From a virus (taxonomy: Duplodnaviria > Heunggongvirae > Uroviricota > Caudoviricetes): 11,449 nucleotides of DNA. The stretch lies in IMG/VR virus record IMGVR_UViG_2703718771_000002, one strand, 5' to 3'. The translations under genes were made by a program, and so were the position numbers. The first letter of the stretch is position 1. Every line of letters begins with the position of its first letter. Under the pieces are notes generated by a model. It had not been told where the DNA came from. It saw only the letters and a program-made list of their open reading frames with translations, and made no database searches. Shown one piece after another: positions 5,331 through 10,741 of this stretch.

Positions 5331-5582
5331 ATGGAATTTCATGAAAGTGCGATTTGTGATTTTCGCGCTAACGCAAATTCAGTAAAACCACAGCCAATTG
5401 CAGTTCTTTTAAAAACAATGGGTGCGTGGGCTGTTTTATGCTTCGCCGCTGACGACACTGACGCAAGAATGGCAATAGGACAAGAGATGGAGATGGACCC
5501 GACAAACGATGAATTCATAATTTATGGCGCTCCATCTAATTACTTACTTGATACCTGCAACATTTACAACAAGGCTGCCTGA
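5331..5582 (+). CDS. Hypothetical protein, 83 aa, first gene after N (ral/sieB-equivalent position)
   Basis: ATG 5331 with SD GAGGTG 4 nt upstream. No family recognised. Confidence 0.55.
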   Translation: MEFHESAICDFRANANSVKPQPIAVLLKTMGAWAVLCFAADDTDARMAIGQEMEMDPTNDEFIIYGAPSNYLLDTCNIYNKAA

Positions 5583-5744: not shown

Positions 5745-5808
5745 ATGCATACCAATAACGCTTCACTCGAGGCGTTTTCGTTATGCAATCAAATATAAGG
5801 AGTTACCC

Positions 5809-5943
5809 ATGATGCACTTTCAGCTCGCGGGTAGCGGCGTCATGTCCGCTTTCTACCCGCACGAATCTGAATTATCACGCCAAGTTAAACAATTAATCAG
5901 AGCAGCAAAGAAACAACTGGAGGCGTTATGCGCAATGAAATAG
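5809..5943 (+). CDS. cIII: cIII-like small protein (44 aa), putative FtsH/HflB inhibitor
   Basis: ATG 5809 with SD AAGGAG 6 nt upstream. The central segment ESELSRQVKQLIRAAKKQL resembles the lambda CIII amphipathic region (ESLLERITRKLRDGWKRL) as recalled. Position matches lambda cIII. Confidence 0.5.
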   Translation: MMHFQLAGSGVMSAFYPHESELSRQVKQLIRAAKKQLEALCAMK

Positions 5944-6080
5944 CCATTAATCACCAGATGCTTCGTGCTGCACAGAACAAAGCAGTAATAGCCCGATTTA
6001 TTGGTGATTCAAAAATGTGGCTTGAAGCAAATAAAGCGATGAAATCAGCTATCAACCTTCCGTGGTATCGCAGGAAATGA
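5928..6080 (+). CDS. Small protein (50 aa), kil-like by position and size
   Basis: ATG 5928 with SD GGAGG. Translation MRNEIAINHQMLRAAQNKAVIARFIGDSKMWLEANKAMKSAINLPWYRRK. Overlaps the cIII stop region and the next ORF (ATGA). The resemblance to lambda Kil is from uncertain memory only. Confidence 0.35.
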   Translation: MRNEIAINHQMLRAAQNKAVIARFIGDSKMWLEANKAMKSAINLPWYRRK

Positions 6081-6235
6081 GTTTTACAGATAACTGGTCA
6101 GACGAAGAATTCATTCGTCAGATGAAAGATTTAATCGGTAACGAAGGAGATATTCATGTCACTTGCAACCACAGTGAAGGAGAGCAAGTTACAGAGACGC
6201 ATGTACACGCAGAAAGCTCTCTGGTATCGCCATAA
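6077..6235 (+). CDS. Small acidic hypothetical protein (52 aa)
   Basis: ATG 6077 overlaps the upstream TGA (ATGA). Translation MSFTDNWSDEEFIRQMKDLIGNEGDIHVTCNHSEGEQVTETHVHAESSLVSP. Poor SD spacing, so only weakly supported. Confidence 0.3.
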   Translation: MSFTDNWSDEEFIRQMKDLIGNEGDIHVTCNHSEGEQVTETHVHAESSLVSP

Positions 6236-6334: not shown

Positions 6335-7042
6335 ATGGATTTGAACAAATTCGATGAGCCATTCAGCCCTGAAGATATCGAATGGCGAATACAGCAAAGC
6401 GGTAAAACACGCGATGGAAAGGTGTGGGCTATGGTGCTGGCTTATGTCACGAACAGGGCAATCATGAAACGCCTGGATGATGTTTGCGGCAAAGCAGGAT
6501 GGCGCAATGAATACCGCGATATTCCCAACAACGGCGGCGTTGAATGCGGCATATCAATAAAGATTGATTCCGAATGGGTAACCAAATGGGATGCTGCTGA
6601 AAACACGCAGGTAGAAGCCGTCAAAGGTGGTCGTTCCGGTGCAATGAAGCGCGCTGCCGTTCAGTGGGGAATCGGTCGGTATCTGTATAACCTTGAGGAA
6701 GGTTTCGCACAAACATCTCTCGATAAAAAGCAGGGGTGGCACAGGGCAAAACTGAAGGATGGAACAGGATTTTACTGGCTCCCTCCATCGCTTCCGGGAT
6801 GGGCAATCCCAGCATCAGATAACAAACCATCACCAGAAAATACCAACCAGAAATCTCCATCGGTTGACTGCGAACAAATCCTGAAAGACTTCAGCGATTA
6901 TGCGTCAACAGAAACTGACAAGAAAAAACTCATCGAGCGTTATCAGCGTGACTGGCAATTAATGGCTGGCAACGAGGAAGCGCAGGCTAAATGCGTTCAG
7001 GTAATGAACATCAGAGTTAACGAACTAAAACAGGCGGCATAA
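6335..7042 (+). CDS. Rad52/Sak-type single-strand annealing protein (phage recombinase)
   Basis: 235-aa ORF with SD GAGGTG. Contains a GIGRYLY motif (AAVQWGIGRYLYNL), which I associate with the Rad52/22 annealase family. Immediately followed by ssb and an exonuclease. Confidence 0.6.
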   Translation: MDLNKFDEPFSPEDIEWRIQQSGKTRDGKVWAMVLAYVTNRAIMKRLDDVCGKAGWRNEYRDIPNNGGVECGISIKIDSEWVTKWDAAENTQVEAVKGGRSGAMKRAAVQWGIGRYLYNLEEGFAQTSLDKKQGWHRAKLKDGTGFYWLPPSLPGWAIPASDNKPSPENTNQKSPSVDCEQILKDFSDYASTETDKKKLIERYQRDWQLMAGNEEAQAKCVQVMNIRVNELKQAA

Positions 7043-7549
7043 ATGGCAAGCAGAGGCGTAAATAAGGTGATTATCCTTGGTCGGGTAGGACAAGACCCGG
7101 AAGTTCGATACTCACCATCAGGAACAGCGTTCGCTAACCTGACAATAGCCACGTCAGAACAATGGCGAGATAAAAATACTGGCGAGCAAAAGGAATTGAC
7201 TGAATGGCATCGTGTTGCTGTATCCGGGAAACTGGCTGAGGTCGTGGGGCAGTATGTGAAAAAAGGTGATCAGATTTATTTCGAAGGAATGCTGAGAACC
7301 AGAAAGTGGAAAGACCAGTCAGGGCAAGACCGTTACACAACCGAGGTTCATGTCGGAATTAATGGCGTGATGCAAATGCTTGGCGGCATTGGCGACAGCA
7401 AACAACAAGCAGCCAGCAGGCAATCACAGAAGCCACAGCAGCAATCATCACCAGCACAACACAACGAACCTCCGATGGATTTTGACGACGATATACCCTT
7501 TGCACCAGTAACTCTCCCCTTCCCTCGTCACGCTATTCACGCAATTTAA
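7043..7549 (+). CDS. ssb: Single-stranded DNA-binding protein
   Basis: 168 aa with an OB-fold N-terminus ([18 protein letters not shown] ... TEWHRV), a Gln/Pro-rich linker and the acidic C-terminal tail DFDDDIPF typical of bacterial and phage SSB. Confidence 0.9.
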
Positions 7550-7557
7550 GGACTTAC

Positions 7558-8106
7558 ATGAATCACTTAATGGTTGACCTTGAAACAATGGGCAACGGGC
7601 CATACGCGCCAGTTATTTCTATTGGGGCGGTATTCTTTGACCCGAATACCGGAGAAACAGGAGAAGAGTTCTCGGTAAATATCTCGCTTGAGTCATCAAT
7701 GCGATATCGGGCGCGTCCTGACGCTTCAACGATTTTATGGTGGATGGAACAGAGTGAAGAAGCCAGAAAATCGCTAACCAGCAACACTCAAGAGCTTTCA
7801 ACGGCTCTTTCATGGTTATCTGAATTCATCATAAAGAACGCTAACCACAAATTCGTTCAGGTTTGGGGGAATGGAGCATCATTTGACTGCGTTATTCTCC
7901 GAAACAGTTATTCGCTGACAGGGCAGCCAGTTCCGTGGCAGTGGTGGAATGACCGCGACGTAAGAACAATCGTCGAACTTGGGAAGGTAATAGGATTCGA
8001 CCCTAAGCGAGATATGCCATTCAAAGGAACTCGCCACAACGCGCTTGATGATGCCATTCACCAAGCCAAATACGTTTCAGCGATCTGGAAAAAGTTAGCT
8101 AAATAA
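7558..8106 (+). CDS. DnaQ-like DEDDh 3-prime to 5-prime exonuclease
   Basis: 182 aa with Exo I-like VDLETMG, Exo II-like WGNGASFDCVIL and Exo III-like HNALDDAIHQAKY motifs. Confidence 0.65.
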   Translation: MNHLMVDLETMGNGPYAPVISIGAVFFDPNTGETGEEFSVNISLESSMRYRARPDASTILWWMEQSEEARKSLTSNTQELSTALSWLSEFIIKNANHKFVQVWGNGASFDCVILRNSYSLTGQPVPWQWWNDRDVRTIVELGKVIGFDPKRDMPFKGTRHNALDDAIHQAKYVSAIWKKLAK

Positions 8107-8122
8107 TCAACAGGAGAAAACC

Positions 8123-8419
8123 ATGCCAGCGCCTCTGTATGGTGCGGATGACGCGCGCCGCTGTTCCGGCAATTCCGTATCGGAGGTGCTGGATAAATTC
8201 AGGAAAAACTACGACAGGATAATGTCGCTACCGCAGGAAACGAAAGAGGAAAAGGAATTTCGCCACTGTATATGGCTTGCAGAGAAAGAAGAACGCGAGC
8301 GAATTTACCAGACATCAATCCGACCATTCCGCAAAGCCACATATACCCACTTCCCTGAATATATCGACCCGCGCCTGCGTAATTACCGCTCACGCTATGG
8401 CGCTATCAGTAATGGTTGA
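8123..8419 (+). CDS. Hypothetical protein, 98 aa
   Basis: ATG 8123 with SD AGGAG 6 nt upstream. Basic and charged; no family recognised. Confidence 0.55.
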   Translation: MPAPLYGADDARRCSGNSVSEVLDKFRKNYDRIMSLPQETKEEKEFRHCIWLAEKEERERIYQTSIRPFRKATYTHFPEYIDPRLRNYRSRYGAISNG

Positions 8420-8429
8420 GGAATTAACA

Positions 8430-8720
8430 ATGAAAACAATGAAGCTAAACATCGACCTCGGCAAATACGTTATTACCGGAACCAAACACGACCTGATTCT
8501 TAGTGAAAGAGGAATTATCAAAGAAGGTGAGAATGCAGGGAAAGAAACACTAAGTCGTATCGGTTATTACAGCAAGTTTGAGCATCTGGTTAAAGAGTTA
8601 TGCAACCGTGAAATTCTGTTATCTCAGGCGCAGACGTTACAGGATATTCAGCAGCATATCGAGACTGTATGTGTGTCACTTAGCATGGCTATTGACCAGT
8701 TCGTGGAGAGTAAATCATGA
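8430..8720 (+). CDS. Hypothetical protein, 96 aa
   Basis: ATG 8430 with SD GAGGAA 6 nt upstream. The track's longer version (from 8277) overlaps the preceding gene. Translation begins [17 protein letters not shown]. Confidence 0.55.
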
Positions 8721-8881
8721 GGGGACTTGCATACAATCCCGGCATTCTTCCGGCAGAAATGATTATTCGCCAACGCGTAAAGCCAATGCCATCGAGAGAG
8801 GAATTGCTTAAGAGAAATTCTTTTCCATCAGTGAATCAAAACAAATATCTGAATGCGATGTGGCGGAGTGGGAAGAAATGA
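8717..8881 (+). CDS. Small hypothetical protein (54 aa), translationally coupled on both sides
   Basis: ATG 8717 overlaps the upstream stop (ATGA); its own stop TGA 8879-8881 overlaps the next ATG at 8878 (ATGA). Translation [54 protein letters not shown]. Confidence 0.35.
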
Positions 8882-9378
8882 AACAAATGACACTAATTGA
8901 GATGGATGGTTTTCTGAAAGGTGAATGCATCCCACGAGATTTAAAGGTTAACGAAACAAACGCTGAATATCTTGTCCGTAAGTTCGGTGAACTTGAATCA
9001 AAACTAGAAACGGCGTTGCGGGAGTGTCGTTCTGCTGGAATCACGATTGATAACCTTGAGGCCAAGTGCGCGGCGCTGGTAGCGGAGAGTGCGGGGATGA
9101 AGAAGTTCTGCAAAGACGCTGCATTCGATGCCGATTACGAAGCAGAGCTAGGTATGGAGCGTGGTGGATTCAGTGATGCGCTTAACGAAATCAAAACCCC
9201 AGCCACCGATGCTTTCCTGGCTGAAGTCCGGGCTAAGGCGTTTGATGACCTTTGCGCGGCGTTCGTTAAGCACGCGTCGGTGTCCGGGCTGGACGATGGC
9301 GACTGCGTTACGGTGAAAGAGGCGACTGACGCTCTGCTGCATTGTGCGGAACAGCTTCACGAGGGAGTGCATTCATGA
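8878..9378 (+). CDS. Hypothetical protein, 166 aa, acidic
   Basis: ATG 8878 with SD GGAG about 9 nt upstream (alternative GTG at 8860). Its stop overlaps the Lar-like start (ATGA at 9375-9378). No family recognised. Confidence 0.55.
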
Positions 9379-9608
9379 GCAACCTACTACCATGTCCATT
9401 CTGTGGCGGCGCAGCGCACGTTGCCAGCGAAGCAGATCACCCTGAATATGGCTCTGGCGGTCGATTCTATTTCGTTCGATGCGGTACGTGTCGCGCTCAA
9501 TCTGGTAGCAAATATGCAGCGCCTGGAAATGACTGCGCGATTTTTTATTCAGAGGTTAGAGCAGAGTGGAATCAGCGAGCAAAGGAGGCAACCAGTGAGC
9601 GAAATTGA
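9375..9608 (+). CDS. Lar-like zinc-ribbon protein (putative restriction alleviation)
   Basis: ATG 9375 with SD GAGGGAG. Translation starts [16 protein letters not shown] with a second Cys pair at VRCGTC. The CPFCGG N-terminus is as I recall for the Lar restriction-alleviation family. Confidence 0.45.
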   Translation: MSNLLPCPFCGGAAHVASEADHPEYGSGGRFYFVRCGTCRAQSGSKYAAPGNDCAIFYSEVRAEWNQRAKEATSERN

Positions 9609-10191
9609 CTATCAGGCACTGCGTGAGGCGGCGGAACGTGCAATTCCAGCAATGGAACGCCTGTTAATGTTGCCAGTTGATGATGATTTGTTAAGTGAAC
9701 AGGAACTTAAAGATTACGGTGTGGATATTGATGCGCTCAACGCCTTCAAATTTCTGGCCGGACCAGAAACCGTGCTGGCACTACTGGATGAGATCAACGC
9801 ATTAGAGGAAACGCGTATCAACGATGTTTGCCGTATTGCGGAACTAACAAAACAACTGGAGTCGGCAAAATCAAAACTCAACGAGCAGCGTGAATATTAC
9901 GAGGGAGTAATCTCGGATGGGAGTAAGCGTATTGCAGAACTGGAAAGCAACGAAGTCCGTGAAGACGGAAATCAGTTTCTTGTTGTTCGCCACCCCGGGA
10001 AAACTCCTGTCATCAAGCACTGCACTGGTGACCTAGAAGAGTTTCTGCGGAAGTTAATCGAACAAGACCCGTTAGTAACTATCGACATCATTACGCATCG
10101 CTATTACGGGATTGGCGGTCAATGGGTTCAGGATGCAGTTGAGTATCTGCATATGATGTCTGACGCAGGCATTCGCATCAAAGGAGAGTGA
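9595..10191 (+). CDS. Ea22-like coiled-coil protein (ead/Ea22 family, function unknown)
   Basis: GTG 9595 preceded by the strong SD AAGGAGG. The track's ATG at 9403 would overlap the Lar-like gene by about 200 nt. The N-terminal YQALREAAERA motif and predicted coiled-coil resemble Ea22-like prophage proteins as recalled. Confidence 0.5.
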   Translation: MSEIDYQALREAAERAIPAMERLLMLPVDDDLLSEQELKDYGVDIDALNAFKFLAGPETVLALLDEINALEETRINDVCRIAELTKQLESAKSKLNEQREYYEGVISDGSKRIAELESNEVREDGNQFLVVRHPGKTPVIKHCTGDLEEFLRKLIEQDPLVTIDIITHRYYGIGGQWVQDAVEYLHMMSDAGIRIKGE

Positions 10192-10192
10192 T

Positions 10193-10741
10193 ATGACCAC
10201 TATAACCGATAAGAAACAGTATCCCAGCAAGCAATATCTTAATGAGCTGATCACCAACATAGAGTTTGCTGCAAGGGCACCAGTTGAAGTCGTGAGAGCG
10301 ATGGCAGCAGAGCTACAGAAGCGGCGCGAAGCTGATAGTGCAGAACCTGTAAGCCAAACTTACAAGTTGCCAGTTAATACACCTTGCCAAGATGCGCCAG
10401 CCCATATCTGGCTGCAAACGGCTGGAGTATGGCCAGAAGATGGCGAGTTAAGCGAATTAACGTGGTGCAGCCACAATCAGCACCATGATGACACGCTATA
10501 TGTTCGAGCTGACCTTGTGAATGGCAACTCTCCGGTAATTCCGGATGGTTGGATAAGCTGTAGTGAGCGAATGCCGGATAAGTTAATTCCGGTAATGGTC
10601 ATGTATGAAGACGGTGAGATGTGGTCTGCAATGTGGAATGGTAATCGCTGGGATGATGGCACCGAATATCCGGATCCGCACTCAGTTACGCACTGGCGTG
10701 AAATGCCAGCAGCACCGAAGCAGGAGGTTAACCGTGGCTAA
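10193..10741 (+). CDS. DUF551-domain phage protein
   Basis: 182 aa, ATG 10193 with SD AAGGAGAG. The C-terminal segment (WISCSERMPDK ... VTHWREMPAAPK) matches the DUF551 signature as recalled. Confidence 0.6.
   Translation: MTTITDKKQYPSKQYLNELITNIEFAARAPVEVVRAMAAELQKRREADSAEPVSQTYKLPVNTPCQDAPAHIWLQTAGVWPEDGELSELTWCSHNQHHDDTLYVRADLVNGNSPVIPDGWISCSERMPDKLIPVMVMYEDGEMWSAMWNGNRWDDGTEYPDPHSVTHWREMPAAPKQEVNRG

Follow-up and report, generated by a model that had tools for sequence, protein, structure and literature searches.

The 11,449-nucleotide stretch of DNA analysed here (the window), which comes from the Caudoviricetes record IMGVR_UViG_2703718771_000002 of IMG/VR, is the immunity and early-left region of a lambdoid Escherichia coli prophage, and carries at positions 8123-9378 of its plus strand a block of four small genes. 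The explanation that we favor, with a probability of roughly three in four, is that this block constitutes the downstream end of the pL module for recombination and accessory functions in a lambdoid prophage of the P22/HK446/Sf6 type, and that its genes play the roles proposed below, among them that of the RecBCD-hijacking protein Abc2. All four open reading frames (ORFs A to D) belong to named families: Abc2 (PF11043), DUF5405 (PF17399), DUF2737 (PF10930) and P22 EaE (phrog_614), respectively. A preliminary description of the block, made from its letters alone, had recognized no family in it and had called the four genes uncharacterized. The profile searches that it suggested gave a strong family match for each ORF in Pfam or PHROG; ORF A is in fact experimentally and structurally characterized, and the term overstates the case for ORFs B and C, which are known DUFs, and for ORF D, a known mosaic Ea-type gene. 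The finding is mainly the correction of an annotation gap: the block is the Abc2 cassette that P22-like and HK-type prophages normally carry, and RefSeq already annotates its genes as anti-RecBCD, DUF5405, DUF2737 and hypothetical protein.

The four ORFs (98, 96, 54 and 166 amino acids (aa)) follow one another in tandem and are linked by Shine-Dalgarno (SD) sites or ATGA overlaps, with exactly the coordinates and couplings originally described. ORF A (abc2, anti-RecBCD protein 2; 8123..8419) is preceded by AGGAG at 8112-8116, 6 nucleotides (nt) 5' of its ATG, and ORF B (the DUF5405 gene; 8430..8720) by GAGGA at 8418-8422, 7 nt 5' of the ATG. The ATG of ORF C (the DUF2737 gene; 8717..8881) overlaps the TGA of ORF B, and that of ORF D (the EaE/Oad2-family gene; 8878..9378) overlaps the TGA of ORF C, a chain that is continued by a Lar-like gene whose start at 9375 overlaps the stop codon of ORF D in the same manner (ATGA). 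No promoter- or terminator-like site was seen on the plus strand between about 6000 and 11000, the block included, which fits with one long pL transcript combined with translational coupling; no Rfam RNA family matches anywhere in the window. Comparison with ES18 or P22 yields a ratio of nonsynonymous to synonymous substitutions (dN/dS) of 0.14-0.23 for ORF A and 0.13 for ORF B, and a dN of 0.2 with saturated dS for ORF C, so that purifying selection acts on ORFs A, B and C. The strong family match of each ORF, together with the low dN/dS of ORFs A and B (the dS of ORF C being saturated), indicates that the four are genuine genes and not chance reading frames. ORFs on the minus strand inside the block (8199-8393, 8808-9113 and 9148-9372) were considered and found unsupported, as all family matches fall on plus-strand frames. 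Searches of the four ORFs against the PADLOC defense-system profiles gave no significant match, NCBIfam profiles added nothing, and a sequence search of the PDB retrieved only Abc2.

ORF A and the manipulation of RecBCD

The assignment of ORF A is the firmest of the four. The protein matches PF11043 with an E-value of 4.7e-61 and 203.4 bits (cut-off 25), its residues 1-97 covering profile positions 1-96 of 97, and phrog_656, named 'abc2 anti-RecBCD', with an E-value of 1e-55. It is 92% identical to P22 Abc2 over the full length, 97% to Sf6 gp25 and 98% to HK446 gp30 (Abc2), and it retrieves the 'Anti-RecBCD protein 2' of PDB entries 8B1T/8B1U with an E-value of 2e-55. P22 Abc2 binds the RecC subunit of RecBCD and blocks its activation at Chi, and it has been proposed to hijack RecBCD on behalf of the phage annealing protein (PMC9836394, PMC12315714). 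Residues 1-68 of Abc2 are the part that has been modelled on RecC, with Pro68 engaging the host protein PpiB (PMC9836394). ORF A carries only three substitutions relative to P22 Abc2 in residues 1-68, which take in the helices that bind RecC (residues 3-66 in 8B1T), and it keeps Pro68. Judged by this degree of similarity, ORF A is to be regarded as Abc2, a RecBCD hijacker that counts among the best-characterized anti-RecBCD proteins, and RecC binding and loss of the Chi response are to be expected of it from the 92% identity.

The genomic setting is that of a phage recombination module, with genes for a Rad52-family single-strand annealing protein (SSAP), a single-stranded DNA-binding protein (SSB) and an exonuclease directly upstream. 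Like P22 abc2, ORF A lies in the pL recombination module beside the SSAP gene; unlike in P22, the SSAP of the window resembles Erf in its tail alone, its N domain being of the Rad52 type, and the C-terminal 20 residues of ORF A differ slightly from those of the P22 protein. In the mechanism that we propose, the four genes would share a transcript with those that lie ahead of them, for the gp33-like protein, SSAP, SSB and exonuclease, and the four would be coupled in translation. By binding RecC, Abc2 would make RecBCD unresponsive to Chi and convert it to a resection engine that serves the phage annealing protein, an action that would protect phage DNA ends and support recombination-dependent growth.

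ORF C as a companion of abc2

ORF C is a very basic protein (isoelectric point (pI) 11) that matches PF10930 with an E-value of 2.6e-31 and 107.7 bits (cut-off 25; residues 1-52 to profile positions 1-52 of 53) and phrog_1117 with an E-value of 4e-38. Its equivalents are P22 ORF56, HK620 HkaI, HK446 gp28 and ES18 gp44; identity is 100% to HkaI, 96% to HK446 gp28 and to Sf6 gp23, and 75% to P22 ORF56. The association of this family with abc2 was followed in 80 IMG/VR loci chosen for an Abc2 with 97-100% identity to that of the window (the Abc2 loci). DUF2737 comes after abc2, directly or past DUF5405, in 70-71 of these loci (about 88%), where it is 90-100% identical. As a partner of abc2, DUF2737 is as constant as gp33 (70/80) and more constant than the type of SSAP, the Rad52 type being present in only 40 of the 80.

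This constancy raises the possibility that DUF2737, and perhaps DUF5405, are accessory factors of Abc2 and the SSAP, that is, counterparts of P22 Abc1 and Arf that would modulate RecBCD or load the annealing protein, and have no anti-defense function. The presence of DUF2737 after abc2 whatever the SSAP type speaks for this idea, as does the absence of Abc1 and Arf themselves from the window, where tblastn returned only chance matches to them (E ≥ 0.57); DUF5405, moreover, adjoins the gene of a DEDD exonuclease in phage 186 and is close to one in the window. However, neither DUF2737 nor DUF5405 shows sequence similarity to Abc1 or Arf, and P22 Abc1 resembles the window only in its neighborhood, as a small gene adjoining abc2. 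Cloned abc2 alone reportedly modifies RecBCD, as Murphy is said to have found in 2000, which also counts against this idea. The distribution of both families is likewise unfavorable: DUF2737 matches 702 phage records versus 225 for Abc2, the C-terminal half of DUF2737 is also found in virulent Jerseyvirus and Kagunavirus phages in another gene neighborhood, and DUF5405 is present in only 16 of the 80 Abc2 loci and occurs in P2-like phages too. On balance, we consider this explanation unlikely. The narrower proposal that DUF2737 may work with Abc2 or gp33 is held with slightly more, still low, confidence. As a near-constant partner of abc2, DUF2737 is a candidate, cheap to follow up, for a component still missing from the manipulation of RecBCD. 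DUF2737 most likely takes part in early DNA transactions as a small, dispensable protein, either accessory or binding a host factor. The literature search returned no published function for the family, nor was evidence of an anti-defense role found for ORF C.

The Jerseyvirus and Kagunavirus siphophages keep the motif PxPSREELLxRNSFPSxNxNKYLNA, which corresponds to the C-terminal half of DUF2737. In Salmonella phage SHWT1, a Jerseyvirus (L006 3151-3306), the DUF2737-like gene lies among small genes between the lysozyme and terminase genes.

Synteny and the variable slot after DUF2737

The order of the four genes is the same in HK446 (abc2-gp29-gp28-gp27) and in ES18; Sf6 shares the order of the first three, and P22 has abc2-ORF56-eaE. 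HK446 is the best phage match to the block as a whole: ORFs A, B and C are 96-98% identical to their counterparts (98% for B and 96% for C), and gene order and coupling are those of HK446 gp30-gp27. The block finds matches in 1483 of 5426 complete E. coli genomes (about a quarter), and all four ORFs are widely conserved, so that the alternative considered at the outset, a set of genes with no conservation beyond this element, does not apply.

The last position of the cassette behaves in a very different way from its neighbors. The gene after DUF2737 is nearly always ATGA-coupled to it in the 80 loci, and the 65 loci that are complete at this position hold 60 different proteins with a median pairwise identity of 4%. 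About 40 of these 65 proteins start with the N-terminal module that ORF D shares with Oad2 of HK446; 31 combine this module with a TPATDAF junction motif, and among them there are at least 10 unrelated types of middle and at least 13 types of C-terminal tail. The remaining occupants of the slot start with an Ead/Ea22 N-terminus or are unrelated genes, for instance Sf6 gp22-like ones. Conserved neighbors surrounding a shuffled cassette are what would be expected of an arms-race locus, and equally of mosaicism mediated by junction motifs.

ORF D, a mosaic member of the EaE/Oad2 family

ORF D matches phrog_614 (the EaE family) with an E-value of 1.7e-54 and encodes an acidic protein (pI 4.7) predicted to be all-helical. 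The exact 166-aa protein is encoded on 981 contigs, and it has more than 7,800 relatives, all of them labelled 'hypothetical'; an exhaustive HMMER search groups its matches in 726 clusters at 50% identity, which correspond to different segments of the protein. The alignment of close relatives resolves a constant N module, a replaceable middle, an invariant junction motif and a C module. The N module (aa 1-72; 8878..9093, plus strand) is invariant in residues 1-37 and usually conserved in 1-72 among close relatives; it is 97% identical to residues 1-72 of Oad2, is also present in HK75 gp28, and occurs in 47 of the 80 Abc2 loci. The variable middle (aa 73-106; 9094..9195, plus strand) is found in 4 of the 80 loci and is unrelated to Oad2, HK75 gp28 and P22 EaE; in close homologues it is swapped for different sequences, of which at least 10 unrelated types exist. 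The junction motif and the C module that follows it make up the remainder (aa 107-166 plus stop; 9196..9378, plus strand); the motif is invariant in Oad2, HK75 gp28 and P22 EaE, and the C module, which matches phrog_27745, is found in 6 of the 80 loci. As the gene after DUF2737 in IMG/VR (L043; representatives P0385 and P0429), the C module is also encoded alone, in proteins of about 68-90 aa, and in one case it is fused directly to the Ead/Ea22 N-terminal peptide (VSKIDYQ...). That the C module occurs both alone and fused to this N-terminus indicates that modules recombine at short conserved junctions.

Relationships within the family follow the same pattern. P22 EaE is 43% identical to ORF D over 82 aa, in its central part only. 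P22 EaE, HK97 gp37, HK75 gp28 and ES18 gp43 share with ORF D the slot after DUF2737, the junction motif, a helical acidic composition and a C-terminus of the 'QLRKGxxx' type; in contrast, the N module of ORF D is unlike those of P22 and ES18, and its C module is unlike those of all four proteins. By homology and by its position in the same slot, ORF D is assigned to the EaE/Oad2 family. The sequences of ORFs B, C and D are absent from the supplements of the Silas accessory-gene screens.

Such an extreme degree of shuffling, with modules found alone or fused to Ead/Ea22 N-termini, could also be expected if ORF D were a mosaic 'moron' that influences, as has been reported for lambda Ea22, the choice between lysis and lysogeny, or if it were tolerated recombinational debris, in either case devoid of an anti-defense role. 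The junction motifs could be mere recombination boundaries, Sf6 being annotated with 'boundary sequences' at this place, and the preprint on OLD discussed below links EaD/Ea22 to lysogenization (bioRxiv 10.64898/2026.07.10.737580). Against this count the occurrence of the exact 166-aa protein on 981 contigs, the good conservation of its modules where present, and the demonstrated inhibitor function of one member of the family, Oad2. This explanation appears improbable to us, to much the same degree as that of the accessory factors.

Relation to Oad2 and the OLD defense

The functional reading of ORF D comes from HK446. According to a preprint of July 2026, HK446 gp27, named Oad2, binds the P2 OLD protein, an abortive tRNase, and blocks its activation, thereby allowing HK446 to escape; it inhibits both the toxicity of OLD and the defense that OLD provides (bioRxiv 10.64898/2026.07.10.737580). 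In the same work, Gp33 of HK75 and HK446 triggers OLD and is suspected to be a new manipulator of RecBCD, and the HK75 homologue of Oad2, with 54% identity, gives no protection against OLD (bioRxiv 10.64898/2026.07.10.737580). The identity between HK446_027 and HK75_28 in our comparison is likewise 54%, which confirms the mapping of the Oad2 gene. Like HK446, the window combines an ORF D that has the N-terminal 72 aa of Oad2, the junction motif and the acidic character with a gp33 homologue upstream. This homologue, an acidic ORF of 52 aa (6077..6235, plus strand; phrog_2123), is 86.5% identical to HK446 gp33 and present in 70 of the 80 Abc2 loci. On the strength of these similarities, the phage carries the reported OLD trigger together with an Oad2-type gene. 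The two regions differ in that an SSB gene and a DEDDh exonuclease gene of the window take the place of HK446 gp31, and in the additional Lar-like and Ead genes that the window has downstream.

OLD fires when RecBCD is compromised, and ORF D occupies the slot of what in HK446 is a direct OLD inhibitor; its middle and C modules would set the target, which need not be P2 OLD. We tentatively propose, at somewhat less than even odds, that ORF D acts by binding and inhibiting a host or prophage defense that senses phage recombination functions, and that the variable modules determine which defense is targeted. A wider version of this idea, in which EaE/Oad2 is a modular anti-defense scaffold, with ORF D as one variant, whose interchangeable middle and C modules, joined to a constant N module, retarget it to OLD-family or other RecBCD-guarding defenses, and in which DUF2737 is part of an Abc2/gp33 core, is more doubtful. 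If it were true, the hundreds of module combinations would represent a natural library of inhibitors against defense variants.

Several observations weigh against these functional assignments. The result on Oad2 stems from a single, recent and unreviewed preprint. The similarity of ORF D to Oad2 (64% identity over 138 aa) is confined to residues 1-72 and the junction motif; no alignment to Oad2 is obtained for residues 73-106 and 120-166. HK75 gp28 has the same N module as ORF D and is reported to be inactive against OLD; since this inactive protein carries it, the N module is not sufficient for OLD inhibition, anti-OLD activity is not to be deduced for ORF D from sharing it, and specificity must lie where ORF D differs from Oad2 and HK75 gp28. 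The AlphaFold2 (AF2) model of ORF D, built on an alignment of 22 sequences, is unusable, with a confidence score (pLDDT) of 43, and gives no structural support. To this must be added, for the rest of the block, the broader distribution of DUF2737 already described and, for ORF B, the failure to find an informative structural relative and the occurrence of its family in P2-like phages. The preliminary description had located the block where lambdoid phages keep their host-takeover and anti-defense genes, the early-left operon, and this placement is sound; the anti-defense reading that it attached to the whole block is supported for ORF A through Abc2, plausible for ORF D through the EaE/Oad2 family, and unsupported for ORFs B and C.

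The same data bear on the more specific idea that ORF D and Oad2 are functional orthologues and that ORF D would inhibit P2 OLD directly, with the gp33-like protein and Abc2 acting without triggering OLD. The shared slot, the ATGA coupling to DUF2737, the 97% identity in the N-terminal 72 aa, the junction motif, the acidic composition and the presence in the window of a homologue of the reported trigger gp33 are all in line with it. Even so, ORF D bears no relation to Oad2 in its middle and C modules, and HK75 gp28, with the same N module and motif and 54% identity to Oad2, is reportedly non-protective, so that direct inhibition of P2 OLD by ORF D is less probable still than the moron and accessory-factor explanations. 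It is important to remark that active HK446 Oad2, inactive HK75 gp28 and ORF D constitute a natural set with one N module that differs elsewhere. Module swaps within this trio would be well suited to locate the anti-defense specificity and the targets of other variants.

ORF B and the DUF5405 family

ORF B passes the PF17399 profile only marginally (24.6 bits, cut-off 21.6) and matches phrog_154 with an E-value of 3e-32. It is 95-98% identical to Sf6 gp24 and HK446 gp29, 67% to ES18 gp45, and about 33% to P2 Orf83 and 186 gp31. The predicted fold is confident and consists of a β-sheet and two helices (a helical hairpin), and DUF5405 proteins of BFVD match the model with TM-scores of 0.75-0.85. 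Of the structure-prediction searches recommended at the outset, the one for ORF B found no informative structural relative, and none among replication proteins. Like the DUF5405 genes of Sf6, P2 and 186, ORF B is a small early-operon gene of the same family and predicted fold; in P2-like phages, however, such genes precede gene A within the replication operon, whereas the one in the window separates abc2 from DUF2737. The 16 of 80 Abc2 loci that contain it amount to 20%, and the 186 homologue (gp31) is annotated as 'unknown function; not essential'. DUF5405 is an optional cassette, and its product most likely serves early DNA transactions as a small, dispensable protein that is accessory or binds a host factor.

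ORF B was also considered as an analogue of Abc1 and rejected in this role: it shows no sequence similarity to Abc1, its fold is unlike the helix-turn-helix (HTH) reported for that protein, and its rarity among Abc2 loci and its occurrence in P2-like phages argue further against it. The literature on DUF5405 and DUF2737 came down to one irrelevant paper, a search for orf83 gave nothing functional, and no evidence of an anti-defense role was found for ORF B. A function in replication initiation, as the PHROG and RefSeq labels have it, is very improbable: phrog_154 is so named and the P2 homologue lies directly upstream of replication gene A, but the label, which appears on few phage records (e.g., phiKT), could be traced to no evidence or experiment, and ORF B, a protein of about 95 aa, has no similarity to known initiators and no structural relative among replication proteins, is encoded in the pL recombination module, a long way from the O/P replication genes (823-1644), and has a homologue in 186 that is annotated as non-essential.

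The start of ORF B is ambiguous. The ATG at 8430 has the better SD spacing, and an in-frame ATG at 8439 (MKLNI..., 93 aa) is the start used by RefSeq and by most Salmonella and Klebsiella DUF5405 homologues. In phage 186 (L004 2423-3279), the DUF5405 gene comes directly after the gene of a DnaQ-like DEDD exonuclease, and in the window a DEDDh exonuclease gene lies two genes upstream of DUF5405, which may represent a recurring association with DEDD exonucleases.

Neighboring genes in the window

On the plus strand, the immunity region comprises a cI-like repressor gene (2547-3248) and the N gene, which ends at 5272; they are followed by cIII (5761-5943), kil (5928-6080) and the gp33-like ORF. 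The recombination genes upstream of the block, also on the plus strand, encode the SSAP of the Rad52/22 family (6335..7042; PF04098, E 5e-26; phrog_1097), the SSB (7043..7549; PF00436, E 1.6e-36) and the DEDDh 3'-5' exonuclease, which is Rv2179c-like (7558..8106; PF16473, E 2.8e-73). The SSAP is chimeric: its N domain is of the Rad52/22 type, and it ends in 79 aa that share 63% identity with the C-terminal tail of P22 Erf. This Erf-like tail might work with Abc2-modified RecBCD or with SSB.

Downstream of ORF D, the plus strand encodes a restriction-alleviation-like protein of the Lar family (9375..9608; PF14354, E 1.4e-9; 29.4 bits to TIGR03655, below the cut-off of 39.6), an Ead/Ea22-like protein (9595..10191; PF13935, E 2.8e-24) and a DUF551 protein (10193-10741). 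RefSeq starts the Ead/Ea22-like gene at the ATG at 9514, with a 95-nt overlap with the Lar-like gene. The GTG at 9595 is the better start, because it is preceded by AAAGGAGG and yields the family-typical N-terminus MSEIDYQALREAAE, with position 1 of the Pfam model at residue 2.

The queried stretch is 100% identical to sequences of E. coli 2013C-4974 and OkiPb01713, where it lies beside ybhC. In 2013C-4974 (L001 7146-9007), in which the block is 100% identical, the exonuclease gene is split by an insertion of the IS3 family; as this gene is intact in the window, the window represents a different copy of the prophage. Two further plus-strand ORFs of the window without a Pfam family, at 3750-4271 (173 aa, phrog_2602) and 5331-5582 (83 aa, phrog_2471), sit in variable stretches, from cI to N and from N to cIII, respectively; in the first of these stretches, the 2013C-4974 prophage carries a DUF3024 gene and a Ser/Thr kinase gene instead.

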